Source: Laetmonice hystrix (Eukaryota). From it: a stretch of 64,000 nt of DNA. The translations under genes were made by a program, and so were the position numbers. How positions within the stretch are numbered: the stretch's first letter is position 1; each line of letters begins with the position of its first letter. Shown here one piece after another: positions 3,143-45,566 of the stretch. Below the pieces are notes generated by a model. That model saw nothing but the letters and a program-made list of their open reading frames with translations. It was not told the origin of the DNA and searched no databases. The DNA lies in NCBI GenBank assembly GCA_965235115.1, contig OZ249447.1:6324001-6388000 (forward strand), written 5' to 3'.

Positions 3143-3349
3143 GGACCCTCGCACACTAAGCCGATTTACATCCGATCGGCCATCCGATTGATGATAAAAT
3201 GTATCTGATATTTGCGTCCGACGAAAAATATATATCTAATCTTTACAAATTAAATGTCCTTTAATGATTTGATGACACAAATTACCAATAATTTCAGAAG
3301 TTAAGAAAATCGGATGGCCGATCGGATGTAAATCGGCCCAGTGTGCCCA
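3143..3349. mobile_element. MITE, PIF/Harbinger-like non-autonomous element
   Basis: 39-bp inverted repeats at 3151-3189 and 3308-3346 (37/39 match) around an AT-rich non-coding core. TAA lies on both sides (3140-3142, 3350-3352), but the outermost bases of the ends do not match well. Confidence 0.7.
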
Positions 3350-20463: not shown

Positions 20464-21033
20464 TTGGATGTGAATGACCACCCTGGGCCCTGGGGCTGGG
20501 AGAGTCATGATCAACCTGGCAACCTTCAAATAAAGTCAGGTTCTGATCAGGATGACCACCCTGGGGCTGGGGGCTGGGAGAGTCATGATCAACCTGGCAA
20601 CCTTCAAATAAAGTCAGGTTGTGATCAGGATGACCACCCTGGGGCTGGGGGCTGGGAGAGTCATGATCAACCTGGGAACCTTCAAATAAAGTCAGGTTCC
20701 GATCAGGATGACCACCCTGGGGCTGGGGGATGGGAGAGTCATGATCAACCTGGCAACCTTCAAATAAAGTCAGGTTCCGATCAGGATATATGTGAATGAC
20801 CACCCTGGGGCTGGGGGCTGGGAGAGTCATGATCAACCTGGGAACCTTCAAATAAAGTCAGGTTCCGATCAGGATGACCACCCTGGGGCTAGTGGCTGGG
20901 AGAGTCATGATCAACCTGGGAACCTTCAAATAAAGTCAGGCTCCGATCAGGATGACCACCCTGGGGCTGGGGGCTGGGAGAGTCATGATCAACCTGGGAA
21001 CCTTCAAATAAAGTCAGGCTCCGATCAGGATAT
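20464..21033. repeat. Minisatellite, 78-bp unit, 7 copies in two blocks (4+3)
   Basis: Period 78 (GATCAGGATG at 20545 and 20623). The unit reads DQDDHPGAGGWESHDQPGNLQIKSGS on +, and the frame changes at the block junction near 20790. Confidence 0.95.
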
Positions 21034-23714: not shown

Positions 23715-24421
23715 TCACCTCAGCCGGCCCTGGGCCATCCACAGTCTGACCCACCTCAGTCGGCCCTGGGCCATCCACAGTCTGACCCACCCCAGCCGGC
23801 CCTGGGCCATCCACAGTCTGACCCACCTCAGCCGGCCCTGGGCCATCCACAGTCTGACCCACCTCAGCCGGCCCTGGGCCATCCACAGTCTGACCCACCT
23901 CAGCCGGCCCTGGGCCATCCACAGTCTGACCCACCTCAGCCGGCCCTGGGCCATCCACAGTCTGACCCACCTCAGCCGGCCCTGGGCCATCCACAGTCTG
24001 ACCCACCTCAGCCGGCCCTGGGCCATCCACAGTCTGGCCCACCTCAGCCGGCCCTGGGCATCCACAGTCTGACCCACCTCAGCCGGCCCTGGGCATCCAC
24101 AGTCTGACCCACCTCAGCCGGCCCTGGGCAATCCACAGTCTGGCCCACCTCAGCCGGCCCTGGGCATCCACAGTCTGACCCACCTCAGCCGGCCCTGGGC
24201 CATCCACAGTCTGGCCCACCTCAGCCGGCCCTGGGCATCCACAGTCTGACCCACCTCAGCCGGCCCTGGGCATCCACAGTCTGACCCACCTCAGCCGGCC
24301 ATCATGGCATGGGTCATCCACAGTCTGACCCACCTCAGCCGGCCCTGGGCCAGCCACAGCCTGACCCACCTCAGCCGGCCATGGGTCATCCACAGTCTGA
24401 CCCACCTCAGCCGGCCCTGGG
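23715..24421. repeat. Minisatellite, 36-bp unit, ~19 copies
   Basis: CACCTCAGCCGGCCCTGGGCCATCCACAGTCTGACC repeated. Several later units are 35 bp (GGGCATCC), which breaks the reading frames. Confidence 0.95.
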
Positions 24422-29900: not shown

Positions 29901-31640
29901 TGATTGATTGTTACTCGGTGTCACTCACTAAACATGCAGTAGTGTGATTGATCAGCGCTGGGAGGCGCTCCTGTCTCTCTGGCTGGATTCACGGGCGGTC
30001 AGAAAGGGGCGATAATTTTACTGATACTCTGTCTGGTCGGGTTCGTGCTAAACACTAAAACAGCTCCTGTAGCAATTGTATTCAGGCAGTAACCCGGTCT
30101 GAGTGGTCCGTGTGTAGAGTGTGTGCTTGTGAGCAGAACATCATGTTTCTAACCTTGTCAGCCGCGCATCCTTCACAACGGGCAGTCAGCAAGCCTGCAT
30201 CACGCAGTCAGCAGGCGCGCATGGCGGAGTCGGCTGAAAATGGTCCATAGCTCATCCTGGATGATGCAAGGCCAAGTACAACGTAAACTAATCAGCGGTT
30301 GTCTAACTGATCCATGTTGTTCAATAAAACATGGAAGTCTGGCCAGATAGGGCAACTTTATCAAACAACACGGAATTAAAGGTTTTAATGCACTCCAAGA
30401 AAGTGCCTTAGGCTATTATAATCTATGATTAATATAGACTAAAAGCAGCACATATTGAAGAAAAACCTTTAGGGAAGTATTCATTTCAAGAAATGGAGTA
30501 CAGAGAGGAAATCGTACTGACTAGCAGTGACATTTCGTGATGCAGTTACGCTTTTAGCATGATTAACTTCCAACCAGGTTAATTTTAAACATGATCTTCA
30601 AGAGGTATTTTTGTGGATTTCTGCATCACATGACTTTTACTAGAATTAGTTACATCACCTGCTGGCACTCTTGGAGTTCGTGTCGGATCCATACACTAGA
30701 TAACGTTAGAAGTTCAAAATCGCAGGTTTCTAAGACGCTGACACGCAGGAGTTCAACAATATGTGCATGACAACGTTCCACCCTCGGTCTGTTGGACGCC
30801 TTATAGTAATGAGAACTTCTGGAACTCTGGAATCTTCATCCAATGAATGGAAAGCAGATAAATTCAGGAGCTCGTAAAGAGGGTTTCAGAGTCCATGCAG
30901 AAAGCATGTTTTCATGTGCCCCCTGATGGTGCTCGTGTAGAGAATATATAAGCGGCATGCCCGTGGGATATTTCCATGACAATGAGGTGTAATGGCATGT
31001 CATTGTGGGCACCATCGTATCGATACAACCCTGGGAACGGCCCCAGACTCTGATGATCATTTGATGCTCTCTGCTCACCATAATGGTCCTTAAACCTCCC
31101 TCCTCGCCTCTCCATCCCACCCCACTCCACCCCCTACGTGATGGAGATTATAGGTAGCCCATTACCCTGGTACAGTTTGCCTGGGTGCCTGCCTGCCGTC
31201 AGTTCTGACCACCCGGGCCTGTGGTCATCTCCTCGCCATTGTCCAGGCCTCTGGTCATTAACCGATTTCAGAGACATGTGTATAGGAAACTTGGTGATAA
31301 ATTTTACAGATTGTCAGAAACAAAGGTCGCATGGAGATTAATTGAGTCCCAGATATTGGACAGTTGATGGGTTTGAGTGGGTTTACTGGAAACGGTTTAA
31401 ATATCGAGATTGTGAAAATCGGTGGCCGCACATTGCTGGTGGGACTTGGAAACAATGGTGCCAGGAGCTTCCGGTGGCAGGGGGATTGGGAACAGTTAGG
31501 TTCCGGGGCAGGTGGTTCGATAGTCAGTGCTGACCCCCTCCTCTCCCCTGTTGTCCACCGTATTTCCTTGTATAGTGTATACATGTAGTCGAAGGTGAAA
31601 GTGATGTCACCACTTGCCGCCCACTGTAAACCTGAGGGTG

Positions 31641-31657
31641 TCGCCCCCTGGTGGCAG
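31641..31657 (-). promoter_or_regulatory. CTCF-like motif
   Basis: Reverse complement CTGCCACCAGGGGGCGA is a near-perfect CTCF consensus, ~100 bp outside the left transposon end. Motif match only. Confidence 0.35.
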
Positions 31658-31753
31658 TCACCTGACGGTCGTAAAACCCCATCATCGTCACCTTGGGTCG
31701 TCACGCTGACAGCCCCAATCAGGCAGTCACTCATCTAGAGATATCTACACTAT

Positions 31754-31806
31754 AGGCCATTCTTAATATTCCGCGCGTAAATATCCAAAACGAGGCTAAC
31801 ACAGCA
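31754..31806 (+). repeat. Left TIR of the ISL2EU-type element
   Basis: AGGCCATTCTTAATATT...CAAAACGAGGCTAACACAGCA aligns with the reverse complement of 42575-42626. The inner 21 bp are identical. Confidence 0.85.
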
Positions 31807-31841
31807 CCGCGCCGACCGCTCAATCTGTTTATGCTGCAGAC

Positions 31842-31967
31842 ATGGCCAGCTCATTTGACGAGTCTAGGGATCTTTCGCTGGTTCCCTCGATTACGTTTGC
31901 TTTTGTTGAAAATTATTTGGCAGATTTAACCACCAGTAAAGGCAGCAAGGAGCTGAATAAAGGCTTT
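31842..31967 (+). pseudogene. N-terminal fragment of the transposon exonuclease (YqaJ-like) gene
   Basis: ATG 36 bp inside the left TIR, reading MASSFDESRDLSLVPSITFAFVENYLADLTTSKGSKELNKGF before the sequence becomes non-coding-like. The assignment is inferred from position and remembered family resemblance. Confidence 0.5.
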
Positions 31968-32236
31968 TCGGGGTCGGGCGAACCCCCTTTTGGCGTACGT
32001 GCACTGGGTGTCAAGTGTAGATCAAATCAAGTACTAGGCTACTACTAGTACTACTACTACTAGATAGTAGTAGGCCACTAGACTAGACTACTGCCCGATT
32101 TCTTTCTGAATAATTGTTCAATTGTTGTTTGTTGTAATACATTAACGTTTATCTCGATATCCACGACTGTCACTAGTGGATTTAGTCTAGATCTACCTGC
32201 CACTTGACTTGTGAAGTTGTTGACAGCTGAACAGTA

Positions 32237-32832
32237 CAGTCAAGTCAGACAGAGGCGTCGTTGCCGGGACGGGCAGATCGGATTGTCGGGGGGGGGGGGG
32301 GGGGAGATTGCTGTGACTTAGCCCCCCCCCCCCCTTAGCTTAGAGGCGCTTTCCCCCCTGTTCACTGGCATATCATTTAATCCTTCATTTTGCGCTCCAA
32401 AATGCAACAAATTTCGCCAAATTGCAAGTTAATTAAATTCCATTTTTTTCGGGGGTAGACTACCAGTACTGCCCGAGCAGGGCTTTGGCCTTTGCGCCTT
32501 TCGAGCCACCCCCTTGGCCATGAAAAAAAACCTACATCTGCGCTCTAGGCAGAACAGAGATAAGATTTTAGACTTGAAATAGGGGGGTTTCCAACCATAA
32601 TATTAGCCATTCTTTTATCTATTTTGGGGGGGGGGGGGGGGGGTCCTGGAAACTCGGAAACCCCCCTGGTTTGCCTTGGGGGGGGGGGCAGGTGTTAATG
32701 TTGGGGGGGGGGGGGGGGGCACCGGTCCTGGGCCGAACCCCGTTGGCCTAATAACTAATTTCCTGGAATAATTTGAAGGGAGTTTCTAACTTTTTGCAGG
32801 GAGGGGGGCGCCCCCCGTTGGATCCGCCACTG
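32237..32832. mobile_element. Possible G-run-rich non-autonomous insertion (composite MITE fragments) inside the exonuclease gene
   Basis: Ends in GGATCCGCCACTG, a MITE-type terminus, and begins with CAGT. Flanked by the 10-bp direct repeat CTGAACAGTA (32227-32236, 32833-32842) and contains multiple poly-G/poly-C runs. The left TIR is poorly matched. Confidence 0.35.
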
Positions 32833-33062
32833 CTGAACAGTAGTGAGCTTCAGTTATTTACATGGTACTGGTATGCCTGTGGGCCATGTTAAATGATAAC
32901 ACTTTCATGTTATAAAATAAATAAGAAATCAATCTGAAACTTTACCATATCTAGGCCTACTTTAACTTCAAGATTTGTTTGTGTGGTAAAACATCCAACA
33001 TTATTCTAGGATTCATTATTTGTTTTTGTCTGTGATTCTAAGTTAATATTACCTTATTCCAG

Positions 33063-33305
33063 TAACAAGATTAACAGAAGGATGCACAGTAACCGCAAAA
33101 TGCTGGCGATCACGATTGTGGTAAGTCCTACAGCTCCCTGGCTTGCTGCAAGCCCTGACAGAAAAGTGTACAACCCTGCAAAATGTCCCCCTTTTGGTTT
33201 GTTGGAAGTAAAGTGCCCACAGGTTGACACTGTCCTAAATGCCAAATGTTTGGAGAGGTCAAAGGATGGTTCACTCCGATTAAAGCAGAACCACATATAT
33301 CATTA
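33063..33305 (+). pseudogene. Middle fragment of the YqaJ-like (lambda exonuclease fold) gene, interrupted by the retrotransposon
   Basis: VVSPTAPWLAASPDRKV...FGLLEVKCP...LRLKQNHIYH(Y) carries the ASPD and E-x-K-C-P motifs of YqaJ-type PD-(D/E)xK nucleases. An upstream VTRLTEGCTVTAKCWRS segment lies in a different frame after acceptor TTCCAG| (33062). Confidence 0.8.
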
Positions 33306-33449
33306 CCGTAAAACACTCGTAGACAAGGCGAAGTTGGGAGTTAAAATTCTTTTAATCACATTAAAAGGATAAGATGTATAAAATTATGGCACCTGGCAAG
33401 TTGTAAAATATATGTATATATATATATAAAGGCACATTGTGTGGCGCCA
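33306..33449 (-). repeat. Split direct repeat B2 (144 bp)
   Basis: Identical by eye to 33732-33875, including the (TA)n tract length. Confidence 0.95.
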
Positions 33450-33532
33450 TATATACAGAGACACGGTATGGCGCATAAAAGACAAAAACATGTTAATACT
33501 GAGCCTTTAACTTGCAGGGTGGGTGGGTGGTA

Positions 33533-33731
33533 GTAAAAGTTGTGGTCTGGTCGAAGGTTGGTGTGGAACTGACCGGTGAGAAGTGGAGTGCAGGGAATAG
33601 CCGGAAATAGTGTGACGACAGAGAATTTGGTTAACAATAGAGAGCACAGAGTGTTGGGTTAGGGAGAGTTGACCACGAGTGCCGGCAATGATCCGTCTTG
33701 AGGTGACAAGCACCCCACCACTAAACCATTA
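33533..33731 (-). repeat. Split direct repeat A2 (199 bp)
   Basis: Identical by eye to 38252-38450. Confidence 0.95.
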
Positions 33732-33875
33732 CCGTAAAACACTCGTAGACAAGGCGAAGTTGGGAGTTAAAATTCTTTTAATCACATTAAAAGGATAAGA
33801 TGTATAAAATTATGGCACCTGGCAAGTTGTAAAATATATGTATATATATATATAAAGGCACATTGTGTGGCGCCA
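33732..33875 (-). repeat. Split direct repeat B1 (144 bp)
   Basis: Identical by eye to 33306-33449 and abuts A2, recreating the circle junction. Confidence 0.95.
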
Positions 33876-33958
33876 AACCTGCAAACTATATGTAGATAGA
33901 AAGGGAGAAAGAGAGAGGGGGGAGGGGGACACGACGCAATAACTCACAAATTGTAAAA

Positions 33959-34963
33959 TCAATGACTAATCGATCTGATAAGAGTCTGGTTTACGCGTGC
34001 ACTACTTGTCCTTATATATGCGCGGTGAGCCGCAGAACGCCATCCGCCAAACCGCTGAATTTCCACTTCTTGACATCCACCTAACAAGGCTTGTGTAGCA
34101 GCCGTCTTCCGTAGACTATGTAGGCTTAATGCTGTTGCATCGGCGCCAACTGCCTGAAGCGCGGACGTCCACACTTTTTTAACATAAGATGTGGGCATTG
34201 GGGAACGGGATTCTGGGAACATGAGCAGTGGTTCGTCGGGGCACCGAGTAGGGGTGTCCGCTATTACTTGAGAGAGTACTTTGACAGGGCAGAAAGTCGC
34301 TATAGATGCCGCTGCTAGTGTAACCTGCCTTGTCTGTCCATTCTTCTGCAAGTTTTTCCCATGGCGGAGGACGATGTCCAGGGAAGTTCTGCCCAAGCGA
34401 ATGTCGCCCCTCGTAAGACAAGCACTGCTTTTCCACTTGCGTACTGTAGGCGGAGCGATTTCGCTTTGGCGAAACGCCCCATAAAACATTAAGAGTATCG
34501 CTGCTCTGACCACCGTCCCGACTGGAGTACTGGGTATAGCCCGTATGGCCCGGCGGAGTACGTCTATGTTTATCGGGAGCTTGACCCGAGGGACATGCTG
34601 CTTTGTTCTGTCCATCGCATCTAACGCGCGTTTGACACGTGGGTGGTCGACTGGCGTGAGCGGGGATTCTGTTAGACGCAGGAATGTCCGGATATGAGAT
34701 GCGTGGTTCCTGACGGTCGCGGCTGCTGGGGCGTAACCGGCGATATACTCCAGATATGCGCATATGTGTTGGTGCATCGGCCGTCGTGGGTTGATGCGCA
34801 AGTGTCGGCAGAACGCTATGTATGTTCCTGCGACTGAGTGGTGGTTCCTGTTTGTGCCCGGCGCCCTTGCTGCCTGTTGCCGTTGCTTGGCTTGCTCGAG
34901 CAGTGATCGGAATGCCGGATCTGGAATGTAACGATGGCTTGAGCATGTCCAACACATAATCAT
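33959..34963 (-). CDS. Tyrosine recombinase (phage integrase family), 334 aa
   Basis: Complete catalytic set: FYGAF-R-QSE, HG-K-N, LH-SL-R-KTAAT (HxxR), RFGG-W-RS and RA-Y-IR. Uninterrupted ORF. Confidence 0.93.
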   Translation of the reverse strand: MIMCWTCSSHRYIPDPAFRSLLEQAKQRQQAARAPGTNRNHHSVAGTYIAFCRHLRINPRRPMHQHICAYLEYIAGYAPAAATVRNHASHIRTFLRLTESPLTPVDHPRVKRALDAMDRTKQHVPRVKLPINIDVLRRAIRAIPSTPVGTVVRAAILLMFYGAFRQSEIAPPTVRKWKSSACLTRGDIRLGRTSLDIVLRHGKNLQKNGQTRQVTLAAASIATFCPVKVLSQVIADTPTRCPDEPLLMFPESRSPMPTSYVKKVWTSALQAVGADATALSLHSLRKTAATQALLGGCQEVEIQRFGGWRSAAHRAYIRTSSARVNQTLIRSISH

Positions 34964-36896
34964 ATGGCATAACTAACTTAACGTCGCTAGACGAAATGTA
35001 TTCAGCGGCTTTATCATTATAGTGTTTTGAGAGATGGGCCCTGCTAAGGACGTCGGCCGTCGAGTTATCAGCTCCAGGTACATGGTCATAGGAGATGTCC
35101 ACGTTACATATGGCCTGGTGCATCCAGACCGCCCTCGCGCACTCCAGCAGAACCTTATTCCTGCCGCGCCCAGAGCGTAATACCTGAACAGTTGCCAAAT
35201 TGTCACAATAAACTTTAATGTGGGCGCCCCTGTCAGCAGGAGTTACAAAAGTATGAAGTGCAATAACTACATTCGCGGCTTCTAGTTCGGTAATATTTGC
35301 GGCCCCATCATCAGCTGGGCACACTTGGCCGCTATACGCATAGTGTCCGTCGGTGGCGCCTATACCTGAAAGACTCGCATCTACATGAATAACCCTGTTG
35401 GGGCGCCGTGCGGTGATGTAGGAGATACCGTTCCACTGCGCAGCAAACTCGTAGAACCACCTGAGGTCGTCACGCATATGAGCAGTAATGTTAATATAAT
35501 TTCCCGACATATTTCGTAGAGCATCGAGCAACTTGGACACAAACAGTCGCGCTGGTTTAATACACTTAGCTATATGTAGAAGCTTACCAATTAGACTTCT
35601 AAGCTGCCTTTTAGTCATGGAACGCTTTTTCAAACAAAGCTTCACCTGTGCGATGACTTCTGAGAGCCGATCCTGTGGTACAGAAAGCGTCATATTCACC
35701 GTATCGATATGTACACCTAGCCAAGTTAGTTGCTGTGAAGGCGGCTGAGCTTTCTCCAACGCTTCCGGTAGGCCCAATTCACGCAGTAGGTTCCGGGTAC
35801 ACTTAAAGTCTTTGTCAGCCTGAGGCCTACTTCCGGAAATATTAATTAGGTCATCCAGATACATTTTTCCGCACACGCCCTTATTCGTTAAAATATTAAC
35901 GATGTAGTTAGCCACCCTTTGCATGTGACATGAACTTGCGCGGGCTCCAAAAGGCATGGACACGTCACAATAATACTTATTATCCCACCTTATGACTTGG
36001 AGTGGCCAGTCGAGTGGGTCAGATTTGAAGTTTTTATATGCGCGACTGACGTCACAAGTGGAAAGAAATGCACCAGGGCCAACGCGAATAAGTTCCTCAA
36101 CCAAATCATCGATAGTAGGGAGAGTATGATCTCTTACATGACCAAACACAGTGTTTTTAAAAATATAGGCATTGACAGAGTTCTCCATAGGGAAGGTCAT
36201 ATCACTGATGACACGCCTATCCTGGGAGCCCCTCTTTTCGCGAGACATTAAGGGGGAGACATGGCACCATGGTTCGAAAGGTGGACGTGGAAAGGGACCA
36301 ATGATTCCACCTAGGCGTAGTTCTTTCTCGATAAACTTGTCAATGTGATCCGTATATTGCGTAGCGCTGGAGTGGTTATCAACGTCATGTGTATCACTAA
36401 TGGGCCCCATATAACCCAAGGGGAACCCAAAGCGAATAAAGTCTAACAGTTGTTTATCGTCTTCACTATCACTCTGATATTTCACCCAAGCATTTACATT
36501 TAAATCAGTCTGTAATTCCACCCGAGCACCAAGGGCGTTAGGCAAACCCGAGGCCTTAACAGCATCGTACACTCTAAGTAGCTGACCATCTGCACTCCCT
36601 AACATGGTTGGCCAATTTTTAATACGGTGCGCCTTGAACACATATGGTGTAAGGTCTAAGGTGTGATTAAATTCGACAGCTTCGCACATGTTCTTTATGG
36701 CTTCAAAATCAGGTACACGAGTTTTAAAATAAGAGGTTTGGTCGTGTGCAGTAGGCGATTTGAACTTTGTACTGGTGTCAGGAACCGTCGGTCGCGCCTG
36801 TGAGACACGAACACGTTCAGTGTGGGCGGGTACGCGGGCATGGGACGTGATACCGCAATGCTGAGTGTCGGGACATGTATTGGCGATCGACTGCAC
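34179..36896 (-). CDS. pol: Reverse transcriptase + RNase H polyprotein (DIRS/Ngaro type)
   Basis: RT motifs HVSPLMSREK, RRVISDMTFP, DVSRAYKNF, MPFGARASS, YLDD and WLGVHID. RNase H motifs VDAS, ITELEA, YCDN and HVPGADNSTADVLSR. The frame is open from 36998; the track start at 36896 is GTG and the first ATG is at 36689. Confidence 0.95.
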   Translation of the reverse strand: MQSIANTCPDTQHCGITSHARVPAHTERVRVSQARPTVPDTSTKFKSPTAHDQTSYFKTRVPDFEAIKNMCEAVEFNHTLDLTPYVFKAHRIKNWPTMLGSADGQLLRVYDAVKASGLPNALGARVELQTDLNVNAWVKYQSDSEDDKQLLDFIRFGFPLGYMGPISDTHDVDNHSSATQYTDHIDKFIEKELRLGGIIGPFPRPPFEPWCHVSPLMSREKRGSQDRRVISDMTFPMENSVNAYIFKNTVFGHVRDHTLPTIDDLVEELIRVGPGAFLSTCDVSRAYKNFKSDPLDWPLQVIRWDNKYYCDVSMPFGARASSCHMQRVANYIVNILTNKGVCGKMYLDDLINISGSRPQADKDFKCTRNLLRELGLPEALEKAQPPSQQLTWLGVHIDTVNMTLSVPQDRLSEVIAQVKLCLKKRSMTKRQLRSLIGKLLHIAKCIKPARLFVSKLLDALRNMSGNYINITAHMRDDLRWFYEFAAQWNGISYITARRPNRVIHVDASLSGIGATDGHYAYSGQVCPADDGAANITELEAANVVIALHTFVTPADRGAHIKVYCDNLATVQVLRSGRGRNKVLLECARAVWMHQAICNVDISYDHVPGADNSTADVLSRAHLSKHYNDKAAEYISSSDVKLVMPYDYVLDMLKPSLHSRSGIPITARASQATATGSKGAGHKQEPPLSRRNIHSVLPTLAHQPTTADAPTHMRISGVYRRLRPSSRDRQEPRISYPDIPASNRIPAHASRPPTCQTRVRCDGQNKAACPSGQAPDKHRRTPPGHTGYTQYSSRDGGQSSDTLNVLWGVSPKRNRSAYSTQVEKQCLSYEGRHSLGQNFPGHRPPPWEKLAEEWTDKAGYTSSGIYSDFLPCQSTLSSNSGHPYSVPRRTTAHVPRIPFPNAHILC

Positions 36897-36927
36897 CAGC
36901 TTGGATCCTTGCTTATCGTGACTGACT

Positions 36928-36977
36928 GGCGTACCGGAGCAGACTAAATCGGACGGTACGCCTCGCGCCCGTTTTTT
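36928..36977 (-). promoter_or_regulatory. Putative -1 programmed ribosomal frameshift signal (gag to pol)
   Basis: Slippery heptamer A AAA AAC (36977-36971) in gag phase, an 8-nt spacer, then a perfect 9-bp stem GGCGTACCG (36962-36954) / CGGTACGCC (36936-36928). pol is in the -1 frame. Confidence 0.7.
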
Positions 36978-38242
36978 GATGCTTGGTCCATTCTGTTGCT
37001 ATGTGAACGAGGCCAATCGTCGTTGTGATAGTGAATGGGGGCGGTGGCCACCTGTCTAGGAGTGGATTGGGTGCCATTGTGCAATTTGCGACGGCAGACT
37101 TGGAAAGAATGATTGCAACGACGTGCGCATGCGTCGCAATACGAGCAGAGGTGCGCGTACCGGATGTTTCCTCGTTCGTGAGCGGTGTTGTATCTGCAAC
37201 CAGCTGGGCTATTGAAGTCCCGGCACACCACCTCGTCGACCTTGTTGTGGGCGTCCATCGGTCGCTTGTCGTCTGCATCGTCAGAATGCATGCTGCTCAG
37301 AGTGCCGCCCGTCATAGCCAGACGCACGCGCTCATTTTGAATAAAAGTGTGGTCGCGCCACGTACATTTTTTGTTCTCAACACAGTCCCAGACATGCTGA
37401 CTCCATTTACGCACCCCTGGCCAAGGACGAGACATGGCATCTAAAGTCACTTCATATATGTGTTGGATGATATAATTAATGTCTGCACTATCAAACGCGC
37501 GGGAGTCTCCTAGAAGGGCCAACATTGCATTGGTATATTCGAGTATGGTCAAGCTTCCCCTAACATCAAGCTTTTGTTTGAGAGTTTGTAAACCGTCCCT
37601 ATCGACATACATATACGGCTTTGCAATCATCTTAGTTACAAAAATGTCAGAGGCAATTGATGCCTTACCGTCCGTATATAGAGGGCGCATTTCTTCCCGG
37701 GCTAGTTGTCCGTCGACGTAACCATCTCTGTTCGCCTCCGCCCTCAGGGTGCGTGGCGGGGGGAGGGCGGCATGTTCGTCATGCCGTGCGGCACTGTGCC
37801 GCCTGTGACGGGCTGTGGGTGCCTGCTCAACTTGGCGGGCTGGCGACATGTCTTGTGGGCCGGGGTCTGTACCTGTAGCGTTGAGTGACCGGTGAAGCGT
37901 AGTACCTGGTGACTGTGGGCGGCGTGGTGGAGTGCTACGTGCTGCCGGACCGTCCTGACTCAACGTGGCACTGAGCAACAGGTCTAGTTTATTGCTCATA
38001 TCAGATACTTGGTTTTTGACGCCGTCCATCTCGCGTTCGATGTCTTGAAGTCGGTTGACCGTGGACGTCTGGGGCGTGCGACCCTGCAAGTTCGAGCTCG
38101 AAGTGTGCAGGCAGTCGGCTTCGACACTATTGGCCAATGTGTCACTCTGCTGAGAAATGTTACCTTCTTCAGGGTGGGCGTTACGATTTTTCTTCTTTTT
38201 AGACTTCGTGCAGGCTCGGGTACGAGTTTTTGGTGGTGCCAT
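36944..38242 (-). CDS. gag: Gag-like ORF1 of the YR retrotransposon, 432 aa from ATG 38242
   Basis: First ATG 10 nt inside A1 (MAPPKTR...), a predicted coiled-coil segment (VNRLQDIEREMDGVKNQVSDMSNKLDLLL), a helical core (...DAMSRPWPGVRKWSQHVWDCVE...W.D...) and a C-terminal Cys/His cluster (CRDFN...C...H...H.CSYC...H...C). The track ORF from 38356 uses a non-ATG start within A1. Confidence 0.88.
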   Translation of the reverse strand: MAPPKTRTRACTKSKKKKNRNAHPEEGNISQQSDTLANSVEADCLHTSSSNLQGRTPQTSTVNRLQDIEREMDGVKNQVSDMSNKLDLLLSATLSQDGPAARSTPPRRPQSPGTTLHRSLNATGTDPGPQDMSPARQVEQAPTARHRRHSAARHDEHAALPPPRTLRAEANRDGYVDGQLAREEMRPLYTDGKASIASDIFVTKMIAKPYMYVDRDGLQTLKQKLDVRGSLTILEYTNAMLALLGDSRAFDSADINYIIQHIYEVTLDAMSRPWPGVRKWSQHVWDCVENKKCTWRDHTFIQNERVRLAMTGGTLSSMHSDDADDKRPMDAHNKVDEVVCRDFNSPAGCRYNTAHERGNIRYAHLCSYCDACARRCNHSFQVCRRKLHNGTQSTPRQVATAPIHYHNDDWPRSHSNRMDQASKNGREAYRPI

Positions 38243-38251
38243 AATGCAGTG

Positions 38252-38450
38252 GTAAAAGTTGTGGTCTGGTCGAAGGTTGGTGTGGAACTGACCGGTGAGA
38301 AGTGGAGTGCAGGGAATAGCCGGAAATAGTGTGACGACAGAGAATTTGGTTAACAATAGAGAGCACAGAGTGTTGGGTTAGGGAGAGTTGACCACGAGTG
38401 CCGGCAATGATCCGTCTTGAGGTGACAAGCACCCCACCACTAAACCATTA
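38252..38450 (-). repeat. Split direct repeat A1 (199 bp), 5' end of the retrotransposon
   Basis: Identical by eye to 33533-33731. Confidence 0.95.
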
Positions 38451-38610
38451 TCAAGTGCAAGCACAGCTTGCAGTCACAGGTTTACAATGGTGTGACTTCT
38501 ATGTATGGTGCCCAAATGATTACCATCTTGAATCAGTAGAGTTTGATAAGGCTTTTTGGAATTTGGTGAAAGACAGGCTGGATATTTTCTACTTTTGTTA
38601 CTTCATATAA
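38451..38610 (+). pseudogene. C-terminal fragment of the YqaJ-like exonuclease gene
   Basis: (Y)QVQAQLAVTGLQWCDFYVW...FDKAFW...RLDIFYF* carries the YQVQ.QL....WCDF motif and continues the 33082 frame exactly once 33306-38450 is removed. Confidence 0.88.
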
Positions 38611-38956
38611 ACTTAGCCTAGGTAGGGCAACATACATCTTGATAATTGCTTAGCCTAATCATATACCGGTATATTTCAAAACTTGCTTTATCTGACACTG
38701 ATCGTGATGTTGGGGAAAATACACGTCAGACAGATATCATGTTCTTATGTCAATTTATTGACTGTATCCCTGAATACAGGAGTAAGTTGTATTGAAATAT
38801 ATATTATATTGAACTGGACCATTCTTGTTTTACCATTATATTCACAGATGGTCGAACATAAACAATTTAAATTAGGGTCATTTTATTCATTCTTATTCCA
38901 ACTGCCTAATCACTTTCAGCATGACAATATTTATTTATTTTAAACATCAAAATTTA

Positions 38957-39384
38957 ATCATCAATGCTCGTGAGGATTGAGAAATGTGCAATACAACATA
39001 TTCATTCAAGTTCCTGCAATTAAGGGGCCTTGAAAGTTTGAAAGAACGTAAGTAATCGTCCAAATCTGATTTATTGACCCCAAAAGGGAAAGAGGGATAG
39101 GGGAATTATAAATGTGAAATTCTTTTATCCGTCGTATTGCACGTTCAACATGAATCCTCACCTTTGCTATTTCTTAAGTACGTGCAATTTCATCACTATT
39201 GAAACGACCATGGTGTAAAAATGGAGGAATGTTTAGATGGACACCTTTCTCAGCTAACAAGCTGCTGATAGTGAAACCTTTATCAGCCATTACTTCATCA
39301 CCAAACTCTAACAAATCAAGTAAACCACTCAATTTAGTTATTTCCACATCTGACATAGAACCACTGAAAAGCTGAGAAACAAAA
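38957..39384 (-). pseudogene. Tandem duplicate of the transposase 3' end and 3' flank (~428 bp)
   Basis: Copy of 39385-39819 with about four substitutions (one makes a stop at 39174-39176) and a ~7-bp indel. Confidence 0.9.
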
Positions 39385-39440
39385 ATCATCAATGCTCGTG
39401 AGGATTGAGGAATGTGCAATACAACTTACAAGATATTCAT

Positions 39441-41275
39441 TCAAGTTCCTGCAATTAAGGGGCCTTGAAAGTTTGAAAGAACGCAAGTAATCGTCCAAAT
39501 CTGATTTATTGACCCCAAAAGGGAAAGAGGGATAGGGGAATTATAAATGTGAAATTCTTTTATCCGTCGTATTGCACGTTCAACATGAATCCTCACCTTT
39601 GCTATTTCTTGAGTACGTGCAATTTCATCACTATTGAAACGACCATGGTGTAAAAATGGAGGAATGTTTAGATGGATACCTTTCTCAGCTAACAAGCTGC
39701 TGATAGTGAAACCTTTATCAGCCATTACTTCATCACCAAACTCTAACAAATCAAGTAAACCACACAATTTAGTTATTTCCACATCTGACATAGAACCACT
39801 GAAAAGCTGAGAAACAAAAGTAACAGAGCCATGAGGTGCAATGCCAACCAAAGCTTTAAGGGTGTGAGTGCTCTTGTAATTTGAATAAAGTTGACTAGAC
39901 AAGATGAGAGATGATGGGGTCTGGGTAAATATTTCAGTGCAGTCAATAATAACTCTAGTGTTGGGAAATGCATCTCTAAAAGTCTTGGGCAATTTTCGCA
40001 AAATAACATGTTTTGGTAGCCAAAGAGGCATGGCACCAAACAGAAAATATAGAAAGTTTGCCTAAGTTACTAATTTTCTACTAACTGTGGCCAAAGAGCA
40101 GTCGAACATATGAGCCAAAAACTTTTCTAACAAGCCGAGACGAATGCGAACCAAAAACATAAAAAATTCATCAAACAAAGTCATGCAGCGTTTCCTCCCT
40201 GCCATTGAAATAGTGTCACTGGCAACATAGTACATGCTTGCCATATTGTTGGCAGAACTCTTAATAAAACTGAAAAAGGTAACAAGCTGAACATATGATT
40301 GGAATCCAGTAAAGTATTTCACGGTAGAATCGTCTGTCCCAAGTCGCTCCAGACCAAACCTTTCAATCTTCATTTCCTTCAGTTGTTTGTTTTCTAACTC
40401 TAATTCGCGTATCTTTGATTGTAGTTCCGCTACTTCAGCGTCAGCATCTTCTTTACTTGTAGACTTATCACTGAAATGGAAAAATATTCTTAATTTCATG
40501 TAAGGTAAATGCTCCTACTGTCCAAATTCAGCAGTCTCACGTTTTATAATGTTTAAAACAAAATCTGTCTTTAACCGTTTTGTCAACAAATGTTATTTGA
40601 GAGTACAGGGTTTTATAGTTTTATATAGCCCATCTTTTATACACATACGTTTCAAGATTTTCTTCAATATCCATATCCTCCACATCACAAGGCGACGCAC
40701 GACTGGAATCATGTCGCTGCAGTACCCTTCGTTTTGCTCCCTGGGTCCAGCTGAATACACTTGGCACTGCCTCTGGCTTCAAAGTCCTCCGTACAGGCGT
40801 CCATTTGAAATCAGCGGGAAGAAAGTGCGCTGAACATACAACTGTTCCAGCAGTAACCTACAAATTGTATTCATGATTTATTCAATTTTCAAGATTTAAG
40901 CCAAGCTGAAAAATATGGATTCTCAAAATAACTTAAGAATTTGATAAAACAAGGATTAGAACTTTCAGAACCAATTTAAGCTTAATCCATACAATTAATC
41001 TTAATTTAATATTATATTATTAGAATTTTGTTCTTTATGCCTTTTTTATATTACATGGAAATATCTATTTTCTAAACTACCTTATTATTTTTCAAACCAC
41101 TCACCTGAAAGTGTTTTCCTTCGTCCCTTCTAATCTTCACCAGCCATACTTTTTTTGCTTTCTCATCCTTTGGGAAAGAATGAAATGATAAGCTTTGACC
41201 GCTTTGAAATCTTGAGTCATTGCTGCAGGTGGGAACACAACAATGACGAGAAACCTTGGAACCAGCTGTTGACAT
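39441..41275 (-). pseudogene. THAP-domain DDE transposase (Harbinger/ISL2EU family), 3 exons, one premature stop
   Basis: Exons 41275-41105, 40857-40649 and 40470-39441 have GT-AG introns in compatible phases (0, 2) and total 470 codons. THAP signature CCVPTC...FHSFP...W...C.AHF...AVPSVF; DDE motifs IIDCTE, MADKGF and IHVERAI. TAG at 40064-40062 sits where Trp is expected (VT*ANFLY). Confidence 0.9.
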
Positions 41276-41950
41276 GTCATTCTCCTTGACTGTAGGGCAT
41301 GAAGTCTAGTAGTAGTATTCTGAGTCTGTAGAAAAGATATTTCAATTACTTATATACTTATTATTGATAATTAAGTTTCATTCAAACATCAAATAATTTC
41401 TTAATATATAGATCTACTTTCGGACATTTTAATTATGATTGAAAGTGAAATGTAAAATGTAGACCCCCCACCCCCATCGGCCCAGTCACTGGCAGGGGCA
41501 CTCTAGACTACGACTCGTGCGAGGCTAAAGAAATGAAGCACTATACAGTATACTAGACGAGTATAGTCATACTCAAGTCATAGACTGTAAAAGTAAAAGT
41601 GAGTAGGCCTAAAGCACACGCAATCGTCAATGACAATGTCAATGTAATCTTTAACAAACTCCCCCACCTAGACCCTACAAATTGTAGTATTCCTACAATG
41701 ATCTACATTATCATACATGCCTAGATCTACATCGTCATGGTCATGGCCAGGCCCATGTCACGGCCATGATCATAGACCATGTAGAGTCTAGACATACTAG
41801 CTAATCATAGGCACCGGACCGGGCATGGGCAGCTATCTAGACCGACAAACACAGGCTCACAGCCCTTCCCCATTCCACTGACTCACTGAGGCCCCCACCC
41901 CCTCGTCTGGGTTGAAAATCACTCAAATTTAGGCCTACAAGTTAGCCTAA

Positions 41951-41983
41951 CCATAGATCAATGAGTTACTCATTGATCTATGG
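41951..41983. repeat. Perfect 33-bp palindrome (16-bp arms, 1-nt centre) within a larger imperfect hairpin
   Basis: CCATAGATCAATGAGT-T-ACTCATTGATCTATGG, with outer arms GGCCTA/TAGGCC and AGTTAG/CTAACT. Confidence 0.9.
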
Positions 41984-42574
41984 CCTAACTTAGGCCATGA
42001 TCATGGACCTGGCAAGGTAAAATGACTCAGTCTAACGTTCTACTTAGCGCCTACCCGTCCCAGTCCCAGTCCCACACTGGACGAATGTCGATAGACCTAA
42101 CGTTAGGGCGTTTTCATTCACTCGACATGGATTCTGTCGTTTTGCATAACAACTGATCAAGATTCAAGCCCATCACGTCGATGTTCACTTTTGCCAGTTT
42201 GGGGAGCTTTGCATAGGGTACATTAGCTGCCACGTTAGTCGTTAGTATAGTACATTAGTAATAGTAGGCCTACAACGTAAAGCCAGAGTCTAGTCGAGAG
42301 CAGTGTTGTTGACTGTTGACAGTGTTGACTGTTGTCGGCCTAACTACTGTCACGTACAGTACTGAGTAAGTAGAATCTCTAACGTTACTAAACACTAGTA
42401 ACAGAGCCTATACTACACATCTAGAATATATTTAAACATAAATTATAATAGAGTCTTAGTACACAGGAAATATAAAAAGGAATTGAAGACCTACCTACGA
42501 CTACGTCGTCGGCTCTCGGCCCTAGGCCTACGTCAAAGGACGGTGATGCCACGTGATGCCGTCCCCGCTCTGGT

Positions 42575-42626
42575 TGCTGTGTTAGCCTCGTTTTGAAATC
42601 GCGTGCATAAATATTGAGAACGGCCT
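42575..42626 (-). repeat. Right TIR of the ISL2EU-type element
   Basis: TGCTGTGTTAGCCTCGTTTTG...GAGAACGGCCT followed by AT. Confidence 0.85.
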
Positions 42627-43260
42627 ATCTTTTCAAATGATCGGGTTTAATTTCTAATGAAATCCTACTGAAGAGATAATTGCAGGATTGGAGGTTTTCA
42701 TAGAATGTCATGACTTTTGACTCCCGAAATTATCTAGTTGGTATTTCAGAGTAATATTTTCTGTGTGGCTAATGAGTCATGGATCTCTAGAATATAGGTT
42801 AAGGAGTTTTAGTCACGTCAATGTCAGTGTATCCATGCATAGCGTTCCAGTTGCGCCGAGCTGTTGACAGGGGAGGGGGCTCCTTAGCATTGACAAATGT
42901 CTTACTTGGTATCAAAGGGGTGATTGCGATTGTACCAGGGGACAAAACTTCCCCCAGGACCCCCGTATCAGGAGGGTTTCCGAGGAAATATTGCCATGGC
43001 AACAGGCCGCCATGTTTTGTTCCGACAGTTGAGAGGTCATGAGATGAATGGGTATTATAGTACTGGTCATGTAACTTGTAAGTACGTTGTGTTGTAGAGT
43101 TGGCATGTCTGTGTTGTTGTATCCCGCCAAATGTTGGTTGATACCGGCTCATGAAAAACGTCATTTAAAACGCTTTCTTCATACATTATAACGTCTTGAA
43201 ACTTTCAATTTATTAAACGTTCTTAGCAAGCCTAGCTTTACCCTGAAAGGAATCACTCTA

Positions 43261-45566
43261 TGGAACCAACGCGGCATCACTCAATACAACTCTTGGAACC
43301 AACGCGGCATCACTCAATACAACTCTTGGAACCAACGCGGCATCACTCAATACAACTCTTGGAACCAACGTGGCATCACTCAATACAACTCTTGGAACCA
43401 ACGCGGCATCACTCAATACAACTCTTGGAACCAACGCGGCATCACTCAATACAACTCTTGGAACCAACGCGGCATCACTCAATACAACTCTTGGAACCAA
43501 CGCGGCATCACTCAATACAACTATTGGAACCAACGTGGCATCACTCAATACAGCTCTTGGAACCAACGCGGCATCACTCAATACAACTCTTGGAACCAAC
43601 GCGGCATCACTCAATACAACTCTTGGAACCAACGCGGCATCACTCAATACAGCTCTTGGAACCAACGCGGCATCACTCAATACAACTCTTGGAACCAACG
43701 CGGCATCACTCAATACAACTCTTGGAACCAACGCGGCATCACTCAATACAGCTCTTGGAACCAACGCGGCATCACTCAATACAACTCTTGGAACCAACGC
43801 GGCATCACTCAATACAACTCTTGGAACCAACGCGGCATCACTCAATACAGCTCTTGGAACCAACGCGGCATCACTCAATACAACTCTTGGAACCAACGCG
43901 GCATCACTCAATACAGCTCTTGGAACCAACGCGGCATCACTCAATACAACTCTTGGAACCAACGCGGCATCACTCAATACAACTCTTGGAACCAACGCGG
44001 CATCACTCAATACAACTCTTGGAACCAACGCGGCATCACTCAATACAACTATTGGAACCAACGTGGCATCACTCAATACAGCTCTTGGAACCAACGCGGC
44101 ATCACTCAATACAACTCTTGGAACCAACGTGGCATCACTCAATACAACTCTTGGAACCAACGTGGCATCACTCAATACAACTCTTGGAACCAATGCGCCA
44201 TCATTCAATGCAACTCTTGGAACCAACGCGGCATCACTCAATACAACTATTGGAACCGACGTGGCATCACTCAATACAACTCTTGGAACCAACGTGGCAT
44301 CACTCAATACAACTCTTGGAACCAACGTGGCATCACTCAATACAACTATTGGAACCAACGCGGCATCACTCAATACAACTCTTGGAACCAAGGCGGCATC
44401 ACTCAATACAGCTCTTGGAACCAACGTGGCATCACTCAATACAACTCTTGGAACCAACGCGGCATCACTCAATACAACTCTTGGAACCAAGGCGGCATCA
44501 CTCAATACAGCTCTTGGAACCAACGCGGCATCACTCAATACAGCTCTTGGAACCAACGCGGCATCACTCAATACAACAACTCTTGGAACCAACGCGCCAT
44601 CACTCAATACAACTCTTGGAACCAACGCGGCATCACTCAATACAGCTCTTGGAACCAACGTGGCATCACTCAATACAGCTCTTGGAACCAACGCGGCATC
44701 ACTCAATACAACTCTTGGAACCAACGCGGCATCACTCAATACAGCTCTTGGAACCAACGTGGCATCACTCAATGCAACTATTGGAACCAACGCGGCATCA
44801 CTCAATCCAACTCTTGGAACCAACGCGGCATCACTCAATACAACTCTTGGAACCAACGCGGCATCACTCAATACAACTCTTGGAACCAACGCGGCATCAC
44901 TCAATACAACTCTTGGAACCAATGCGGCATCACTCAATACAGCTCTTGGAACCAACGCGGCATCACTCAATACAACTCTTGGAACCAACGCGGCATCACT
45001 CAATACAACTCTTGGAACCAACGCGGCATCACTCAATACAACTATTGGAACCAACGCGGCATCACTCAATACAGCTCTTGGAACCAACGCGGCATCACTC
45101 AATACAGCTCTTGGAACCAACGCGGCATCACTCAATACAACTCTTGGAACCAACGCGGCATCACTCAATACAGCTCTTGGAACCAACGCGGCATCACTCA
45201 ATACAGCTCTTGGAACCAACGCGGCATCACTCAATACAACTCTTGGAACCAACGCGGCATCACTCAATACAACTCTTGGAACCAACGCGGCATCACTCAA
45301 TACAACTCTTGGAACCAACGTGGCATCACTCAATACAACTATTGGAACCAACGTGGCATCACTCAATACAACTCTTGGAACCAACGCGGCATCACTCAAT
45401 ACAACTCTTGGAACCAACGCGGCATCACTCAATACAACTCTTGGAACCAACGCGGCATCACTCAATACAACTATTGGAACCAACGCGGCATCACTCAATA
45501 CAACTCTTGGAACCAACGCGGCATCACTCAATACAACTATTGGAACCAACGCGGCATCACTCAATA
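43261..45566. repeat. Large tandem array, 33-bp unit, ~70 copies
   Basis: GGAACCAACGCGGCATCACTCAATACAACTCTT repeated with few variants and one 3-bp insertion near 44577. Open in two + frames and one - frame. Confidence 0.97.

Follow-up and report, generated by a model that had tools for sequence, protein, structure and literature searches.

Ngaro-type retrotransposons, which encode a tyrosine recombinase (YR), were described from Xenopus (DIRS-53_XT, PMC9210276), from Cafeteria (types 1-4, PMC8547959) and, in a Ngaro-like form, from amphioxus (PMC2632668). According to the excerpts of these papers on which, as for all papers cited below, the comparison is based, they share with the element reported here gag, reverse transcriptase (RT)/RNase H and YR, the lack of a methyltransferase (MT), insertion into other mobile elements and extra terminal-repeat units. 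Here, a 64,000-nt stretch of the Laetmonice hystrix genome is considered (GCA_965235115.1, contig OZ249447.1, 6,324,001-6,388,000; hereafter the window, in whose positions all coordinates are given). It harbours an intact, multi-copy Ngaro-type element at a CATTA motif within a broken ISL2EU transposon, where it very probably arrived by YR recombination of a DNA circle with a matching genomic core. As compared to the known Ngaro systems, the element is without an SGNH hydrolase open reading frame (ORF), possesses an 83-nt spacer between its A2 and B2 repeats and keeps its pol frame open across 261 YR codons; in addition, its core as well as predicted frameshift and splice sites can be specified. 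In Cafeteria, Ngaro copies residing within other mobile elements were reported, along with isolated AB repeats and a link of ORF1 to target choice (PMC8547959).

DIRS1-like elements (PMC3266345, PMC7192593) likewise possess a junction motif which matches the target, with one copy at each end and no duplication, and about half of them show a long ORF overlap, but their repeats are inverted and accompanied by an internal complementary region, they carry an MT, and their junction of 3 bp is often ATT, which lies within CATT. For the DIRS order the model was put forward that recombination takes place between the circle junction and a short genomic motif identical to it, no duplication being left (PMC3266345, PMC7192593), whereby in 2020 the YR specificity was stated never to have been examined experimentally (PMC7192593). 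PAT-like elements (PMC4157794) have the same split direct repeats and, when Pat1-like, a Gag zinc finger, but differ by an MT domain, found neither in the window element nor in its relatives. Among DNA elements, the YR of CryptonF-1_cRei matches a donor CACCG to a target CAYCG and clean excision was shown (PMC9977147), while for Starships, which use a TTAC motif, clean excision, a circle and plasmid integration were shown (bioRxiv 10.64898/2026.09.21.753150). A literature search identified, within the excerpts covered, no Ngaro core, slippery site or gag-YR splice; as the founding 2004 paper and the reviews of 2005 and 2015 lie outside this coverage, absence from print is not established. The 2004 work of Goodwin and Poulter and both reviews are said to discuss the similarity of junction and target. 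Family, layout and core logic are thus already known and the discovery is a modest one; newly added are the predicted, conserved-looking frameshift and splice signals.

Layout and family of the element

The element comprises 5,150 nt on the minus strand in the order A1-gag-RT/RNase H-YR-B1-A2-spacer-B2. A preliminary description of the locus had given its span as 33301..38455, of which the left end holds, whereas the true right end is 38450. Its 5' end is formed by A1 (38252-38450, minus), which starts with the core, TAATG in element sense, and pairs with A2 (33533-33731, minus) over 199 nt with zero mismatches. The 3' end is formed by B2 (33301-33449, minus), which terminates in the core and pairs with B1 (33727-33875, minus) over 149 nt, again with zero mismatches. 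The 5-nt core of the internal junction is common to A2 and B1, and A2 and B2 are separated by the single-copy spacer of 83 nt (33450-33532, minus), of which the preliminary description made no mention. As that description had reported, CATTA occurs three times, namely at the left end (33301-33305), at the B1/A2 overlap (33727-33731), the predicted, attP-like circle junction, and at the right, A1/host junction (38446-38450), and both repeat pairs are identical (0 differences over 348 nt of paired repeats). In Xenopus, the repeats of young DIRS-53_XT copies are likewise 100% identical, having lengths of 236 and 152 bp as compared to 199 and 149 here (PMC9210276).

Four public runs (X1-X4), all contigs of one sample, were placed on the window at 85% likeness; 22 loose contig ends are listed, and 47 further loose ends and 199 contig pieces exist beyond those listed. 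Long X1 contigs deviate from the window by 6 other letters and 1 gap in ~4,330 nt, which together with the identical repeats bears out the youth of the element; of the four coding-region differences listed, two alter an amino acid and none makes a stop inside an ORF. As contigs bridge the passages from A into the ORFs (35929-38278) and from the ORFs into B (33863-35592), the repeats are unlikely to be an assembly artefact. For the copy in the window itself, the filled junctions do not appear in the contig pieces listed, and the filled allele rests on the window sequence. In X1 the element body has a depth of ~470-500 as compared to 37 for a divergent, internally deleted copy, whereby contig depth, as the tool warns, is no copy number; several distinct flanks together with depth show a multi-copy family.

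The divergent copy (~9% different) joins the A repeat (33647/38366) to the RNase H region (35334) with 17 other letters between and is an internally deleted relative present in three of the four runs. Spacer and A2 (33450-33731) display a summed contig depth well above that of the element body and variants of their own, which may point to solo B-spacer-A units or to non-autonomous derivatives. At 33362 and 33788, most of the contig depth carries one extra A, the window having the shorter run in B1 and B2 alike; this common short run is the outcome expected if both copies are rebuilt from one template, a systematic homopolymer error being possible too. An 8-bp hairpin at the spacer/B2 border was discarded as lying within chance (47/200 shuffles), and an Rfam search of 31000-43000 gave 0 matches.

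Complete catalytic motifs had been ascribed to all three ORFs, which is correct for YR and RT/RNase H while ORF1 possesses a Cys/His finger, which is no catalytic motif. ORF1 (36944-38242, minus, ATG at 38242) encodes a Gag-like protein of 432 aa with a coiled-coil-like N-terminal part, a conserved core and the said finger; five homologues (35-67% identity) were aligned, no Pfam match above cut-off was obtained and an ESM Atlas search with Gag returned unnamed clusters only. The pol frame (34179-36998, minus, 939 open codons) encodes an RT (PF00078, E 1.4e-10; D... and YLDD motifs, the latter near 35864), followed by RNase H at 35390-35063 with D-E-D-D motifs. The YR ORF (33959-34963, minus, ATG at 34963) encodes 334 aa, matches the phage integrase family (PF00589, E 7.4e-09) and holds the complete catalytic set R164, K202, H281, R284, W307 and Y315 (alignment of 26/40 available sequences), in the pattern of the Cre catalytic residues. 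Its structure model (pLDDT 88.6, low confidence in residues 1-9 alone, helix 1 beginning at 15) has Cre as best fold match (PDB 4crx and others; whole length, E 1.8e-09, TM ~0.7), with 18% identity. Pfam detected no DDE integrase inside the element.

The split direct repeats A1-ORFs-B1-A2-B2, the order of gag, RT/RNase H and YR on one strand and the internal repeats downstream of YR are as in Ngaro, which bears out the layout given in the preliminary description. Split repeats and the lack of MT define Ngaro, and structure is also said to be able to mislead in classification (PMC4157794, PMC9210276, PMC13465315). No MT was found: for the last 293 aa of pol, Pfam gave no match at E<=10, and Dam matched none of 10 long homologues, whereby the Pfam Dam profile may miss a diverged MT. 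The C-terminal tail of pol (286 aa, G/P/R/S-rich), which overlies the YR ORF, was considered as a hidden MT and rejected, as it lacks a Pfam hit, is of low complexity and, with 21-35% identity to homologous tails, is poorly conserved. No terminal inverted repeat pair as in DIRS1-like elements was found, and YR is last in the element, whereas in VIPER, known from kinetoplastid hosts, the YR ORF precedes RT (PMC6681497). By layout and lack of MT the element fits the Ngaro type. As the RT profile retrieved 3,731 clusters at E<=1e-30, elements of this kind are common.

Descent from a PAT-like element by MT loss would be compatible with the PAT repeat layout and the Cys/His finger in Gag, and MT loss from the PAT lineage was reported (PMC4157794). 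It would also suit the long pol/YR overlap, which is typical of DIRS1-like elements, ORF overlaps in Ngaro usually being short (PMC3266345), though reported (PMC9210276). In the window, the 261 codons of the pol frame that overlie the YR ORF (34182-34964, minus) are free of stops, which was reached in 0 and 1 of 10,000 synonymous shuffles, and tails of >200 aa occur in 60/103 close relatives as compared to 9/97 more distant ones. Yet 87/97 of these distant relatives (134 examined, 37 without recognisable RNase H end motif) stop within 70 aa of the RNase H end, with a DLFA-like motif in none, and hence have no room for an MT, so that no recent loss took place; moreover, in two metagenomic relatives pol ends at the YR start. 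A PAT origin is thus considered quite improbable.

These relatives, L001 and L002, were the two found among 20 matches in metagenome contigs, neither with usable flanks; viral contigs yielded 0 relatives among 40 pattern matches. L001 (1-5602) closes on itself with a 44-nt end repeat and has the order RT-YR-noncoding-gag, which was not accepted as a circle since a collapsed assembly of split repeats would give the same closure. Near 3195, in the non-coding part of L001, GTAATGGT occurs as it does in sense at the junction in the window, a post hoc observation which is possibly due to chance.

Integration at the CATTA core

At the locus, the product has the structure host-CATTA-B...A-CATTA-host. 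As had been described, in silico removal of 33306-38450 yields ...KQNHIYHYQVQAQLAVTGLQWCDF..., which reads in frame to a stop. The empty junction was also identified as real DNA, namely in one 981-nt contig from three of the four runs, in which 33300 is joined to 38446 with 5 ambiguous letters and which is unbroken with 0 other letters versus the window. Because its depth (237, 197 and 108) is near that of the host flank (231, 157 and 77), this contig most likely represents paralogous copies of the host transposon and not an excision product, and it was rejected as proof of excision.

Four distinct other right ends are listed, of which three keep CATT and two the full CATTA: CATT followed by GCTTG (X1, X3), CATTA followed by CTCTG (X2), CATTA followed by TAATA (X4) and one without a core. 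On the left side, the flanks listed, which comprise one in X1 and X2 and two contigs in X3, match from 33299 onwards, i.e., over AT-CATTA, like the window. Since the donor junction reads AC-CATTA and the targets read AT-CATT(R), a 7-nt overlap A-Y-CATT-R would fit donor and targets, as judged from three or four unpaired flanks. Overlaps of tyrosine recombinases usually comprise 6-8 nt. Of the invariant CATTA core that the preliminary description had put up for testing in other copies, the shared core therefore stands while the invariance does not. The further idea of a preference for ISL2EU genes found no support, none of the few other flanks listed running into host sequence, though contigs of this kind probably lose junctions that join two repeats.

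The mechanism suggested for the element assumes that initially a single RNA would be made, reaching from inside A1 to inside B2. From it, Gag would be translated first and Gag-Pol through a -1 frameshift, the recombinase being predicted to come from spliced RNA. Next, following the published model, reverse transcription would rebuild both ends from the internal B1/A2 region and close a circle with one core. Finally, as the filled and empty sites suggest, the Cre-like YR would cross this junction with a genomic CATT(R), probably after AT, whereby each end would keep one core and no variable duplication would be made. The reverse reaction would, by arithmetic, restore the site. The attP/attB logic of the preliminary description thus holds as regards the core shared by junction and target (the probability of a given CATTA at one host position by chance is ~0.0014), but not as a new mechanism, as it corresponds to the published DIRS-order model (PMC3266345, PMC7192593). 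The trait of that order, i.e., a junction motif equal to the target motif without variable duplication, is seen here at one paired site and, as CATT, at the three right ends named above.

A sequence-specific 5-bp target duplication, resulting from a staggered cut and fill-in, would explain CATTA without a recombination core, and at a single locus the filled and empty sites look exactly like such a duplication. The element, however, possesses a CATTA of its own in the B1/A2 junction and encodes neither a DDE integrase nor an endonuclease; besides, its enzyme folds like Cre, which conserves DNA, and one of the right ends reads CATT-G, all of which renders a duplication exceedingly improbable. 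Less remote, and still rather unlikely, is the assumption that a shorter or looser match of ~3-4 nt, like the trinucleotide of DIRS1-like elements, suffices and that non-matching targets are tolerated as by Tn916-like integrases, the 5-bp match being partly luck. This would accommodate that two of the four other right ends lack the full CATTA and one lacks any core, that DIRS1-like junctions have 3 bp, most often ATT (PMC3266345), and that the core is without symmetric arms. Against it, the listed left ends fit the seven letters AT-CATTA, whose AT comes from the host, so that the preference would be wider rather than narrower, and the coreless end may result from a later deletion or insertion.

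Recombination of a circle with a matching core hence remains the preferred explanation, to which the following points are adverse. The coreless right end (X1-X3) exits after TAAAC, with CATTA 8 nt further, and paired junctions together with an empty form are available for one site only, all other flanks being unpaired and from one sample at 85% likeness. No circle, excision or RNA was observed, whereby the circle junction equals the internal junction, so that contigs cannot distinguish a circle. For DIRS-1, the cDNA was mostly linear and inverse PCR of the circle junction failed (PMC7192593). Around the junction core no inverted-repeat arms were found (best 6/13 matches), unlike lox-type sites with their 13-bp inverted arms.

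Predicted expression of Pol and recombinase

The pol frame is in -1 to gag and shares 55 nt with it. Within gag, the heptamer A_AAA_AAC (36971-36977, minus) is in the gag frame and followed, 8 nt further, by a 9-bp hairpin (36928-36962, minus), a predicted frameshift stimulator, which ranks within the most stable 0.8% of all 45-nt windows along the element. L001, whose RT is 36% identical, shows this heptamer too, again in the gag frame and followed by a hairpin, and x-K-N is found near the end of all four database Gags reaching that point (P0164 being shorter and P0097 an in-frame Gag-Pol fusion). A -1 frameshift at A_AAA_AAC is therefore predicted as the probable route to Gag-Pol.

For the recombinase, consensus sites suggest a splice. 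The predicted 5' splice site ACG|GTAAGG (37663-37671, minus, first intron base 37668) lies in phase 1 at gag codon 192. The predicted 3' splice site ...TTACATTCCAG|A (34920-34942, minus, first exon base 34920) is likewise in phase 1 and sits at the start of the folded YR; joining both is in frame and open and would yield a fusion of N-terminal Gag to YR with 511 aa. In a simple consensus count, 3/3 donor-like sites in gag but 0/6 in pol are in phase 1. The donor column reads G-K in 8/9 aligned Gags, and L002 has a matching phase-1 donor (AAG|GTAAGG) and acceptor. Relative to pol, the YR frame is +1 in the window element, 0 in L001 and -1 in L002, which favours a splice because splicing tolerates frame changes whereas a single frameshift does not; varying YR/pol frames among elements were also reported earlier (PMC3783388). 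A splice joining gag codon 192 to YR thus appears somewhat better than an even prospect.

Several observations speak against these two predictions. The 86-nt hairpin region as a whole is unremarkable (z -1.1; 28/200 shuffles as stable), and in L002 gag and pol share one frame with a stop, so that the frameshift is not universal. The donor-like site of L001 is three codons off the aligned G, while its acceptor is ambiguous, several being possible. In run X4, whose kind is not known, no joint at the predicted splice was found, and the YR ORF has in-frame ATGs of its own at 34963 and 34957. The latter would allow YR to be made without splicing from a shorter RNA; a frameshift from pol would be a further route, as was proposed for the Ngaro YR by Poulter and Butler 2015 (quoted in PMC13003380). 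The splice-like sites would then be by-products of protein conservation, as G-K and R are perhaps conserved for protein reasons and just three DNA sequences are readable. In contrast, the start codons of 39 YR homologues are at varied places, and the pol/YR frame differs among the three elements while the acceptor phase is constant at 1. Moreover, of 103 pol tails (those with the anchor motif out of 120), 81 have R and 11 have a stop in the acceptor column, so that production without splicing is regarded as doubtful, if to be taken seriously.

When all of this is combined, a fixed programme run from one RNA may tentatively be envisaged for this Ngaro clade, at slightly less than an even chance, in which Gag, Gag-Pol by -1 frameshift and a spliced Gag-YR of 511 aa would be made, the latter crossing an asymmetric A-Y-CATT-R without palindromic arms.

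The host transposon and the meaning of the locus

The host is an ISL2EU-type DNA transposon (31754-42626) with imperfect terminal inverted repeats (TIRs) of ~55 nt, whose perfect part comprises 21 nt (31786-31806/42575-42595) and which begin with AGG rather than GG, flanked by an AT target duplication (31752-31753/42627-42628). ISL2EU is defined by a transposase plus a YqaJ ORF, TIRs and an AT duplication (PMC4482050), and a THAP-HTH-DDE transposase on the minus strand and a YqaJ-like ORF on the plus strand are indeed present. The YqaJ-like exonuclease exon (33062-38610, plus; PF09588, E 3e-04 to 7e-04, below gathering score) consists of 33062-33113, a deletion joint, 33116-33305, the Ngaro insertion and 38451-38610; to the left and to the right of 33113/33116 contigs depart from the window sequence, and the flanking pieces are out of frame. 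The transposase exons (39441-41305, minus; THAP E 2.7e-09, HTH_Tnp_4, DDE_Tnp_4) contain an in-frame TAG at 40061-40063, and the transposase 3' end is part of a 435-nt tandem duplication (38956-39819). The gene disruption had been called perfectly reversible, which does not hold, as the exonuclease was already frame-shifted by the deletion 190 nt upstream and the transposase has an in-frame stop. The host is decayed, and removal of the retroelement would restore the local sequence but not a working gene. Upstream of the THAP exon, the host transposon also contains a perfect 16-bp inverted repeat with a 1-nt loop (41951-41983).

Elsewhere in the window, a minisatellite-like tandem array of 33-nt units (43255-45566; 70 copies, 96% alike) is open in several frames, and further minisatellites are found at 908-1856 (43-nt units), 20474-21033 (78-nt units) and 23716-24421 (36-nt units).

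For the integration of tyrosine-recombinase retrotransposons a model has existed for long, and among eukaryotes the reaction has already been demonstrated with Cryptons and Starships. With its donor junction, empty target and two hybrid ends, the locus fully specifies a two-plasmid test for a young family whose Cre-like enzyme is intact. If the predicted splice is true, the bare 334-aa ORF might not be the right form of the protein for such an assay. The Gag-YR programme, if true, would explain the varying YR frames among Ngaro elements, could explain the link of ORF1 to target choice in Cafeteria and would define the enzyme and the substrates with which the recombinase of an animal retrotransposon could be assayed for the first time.

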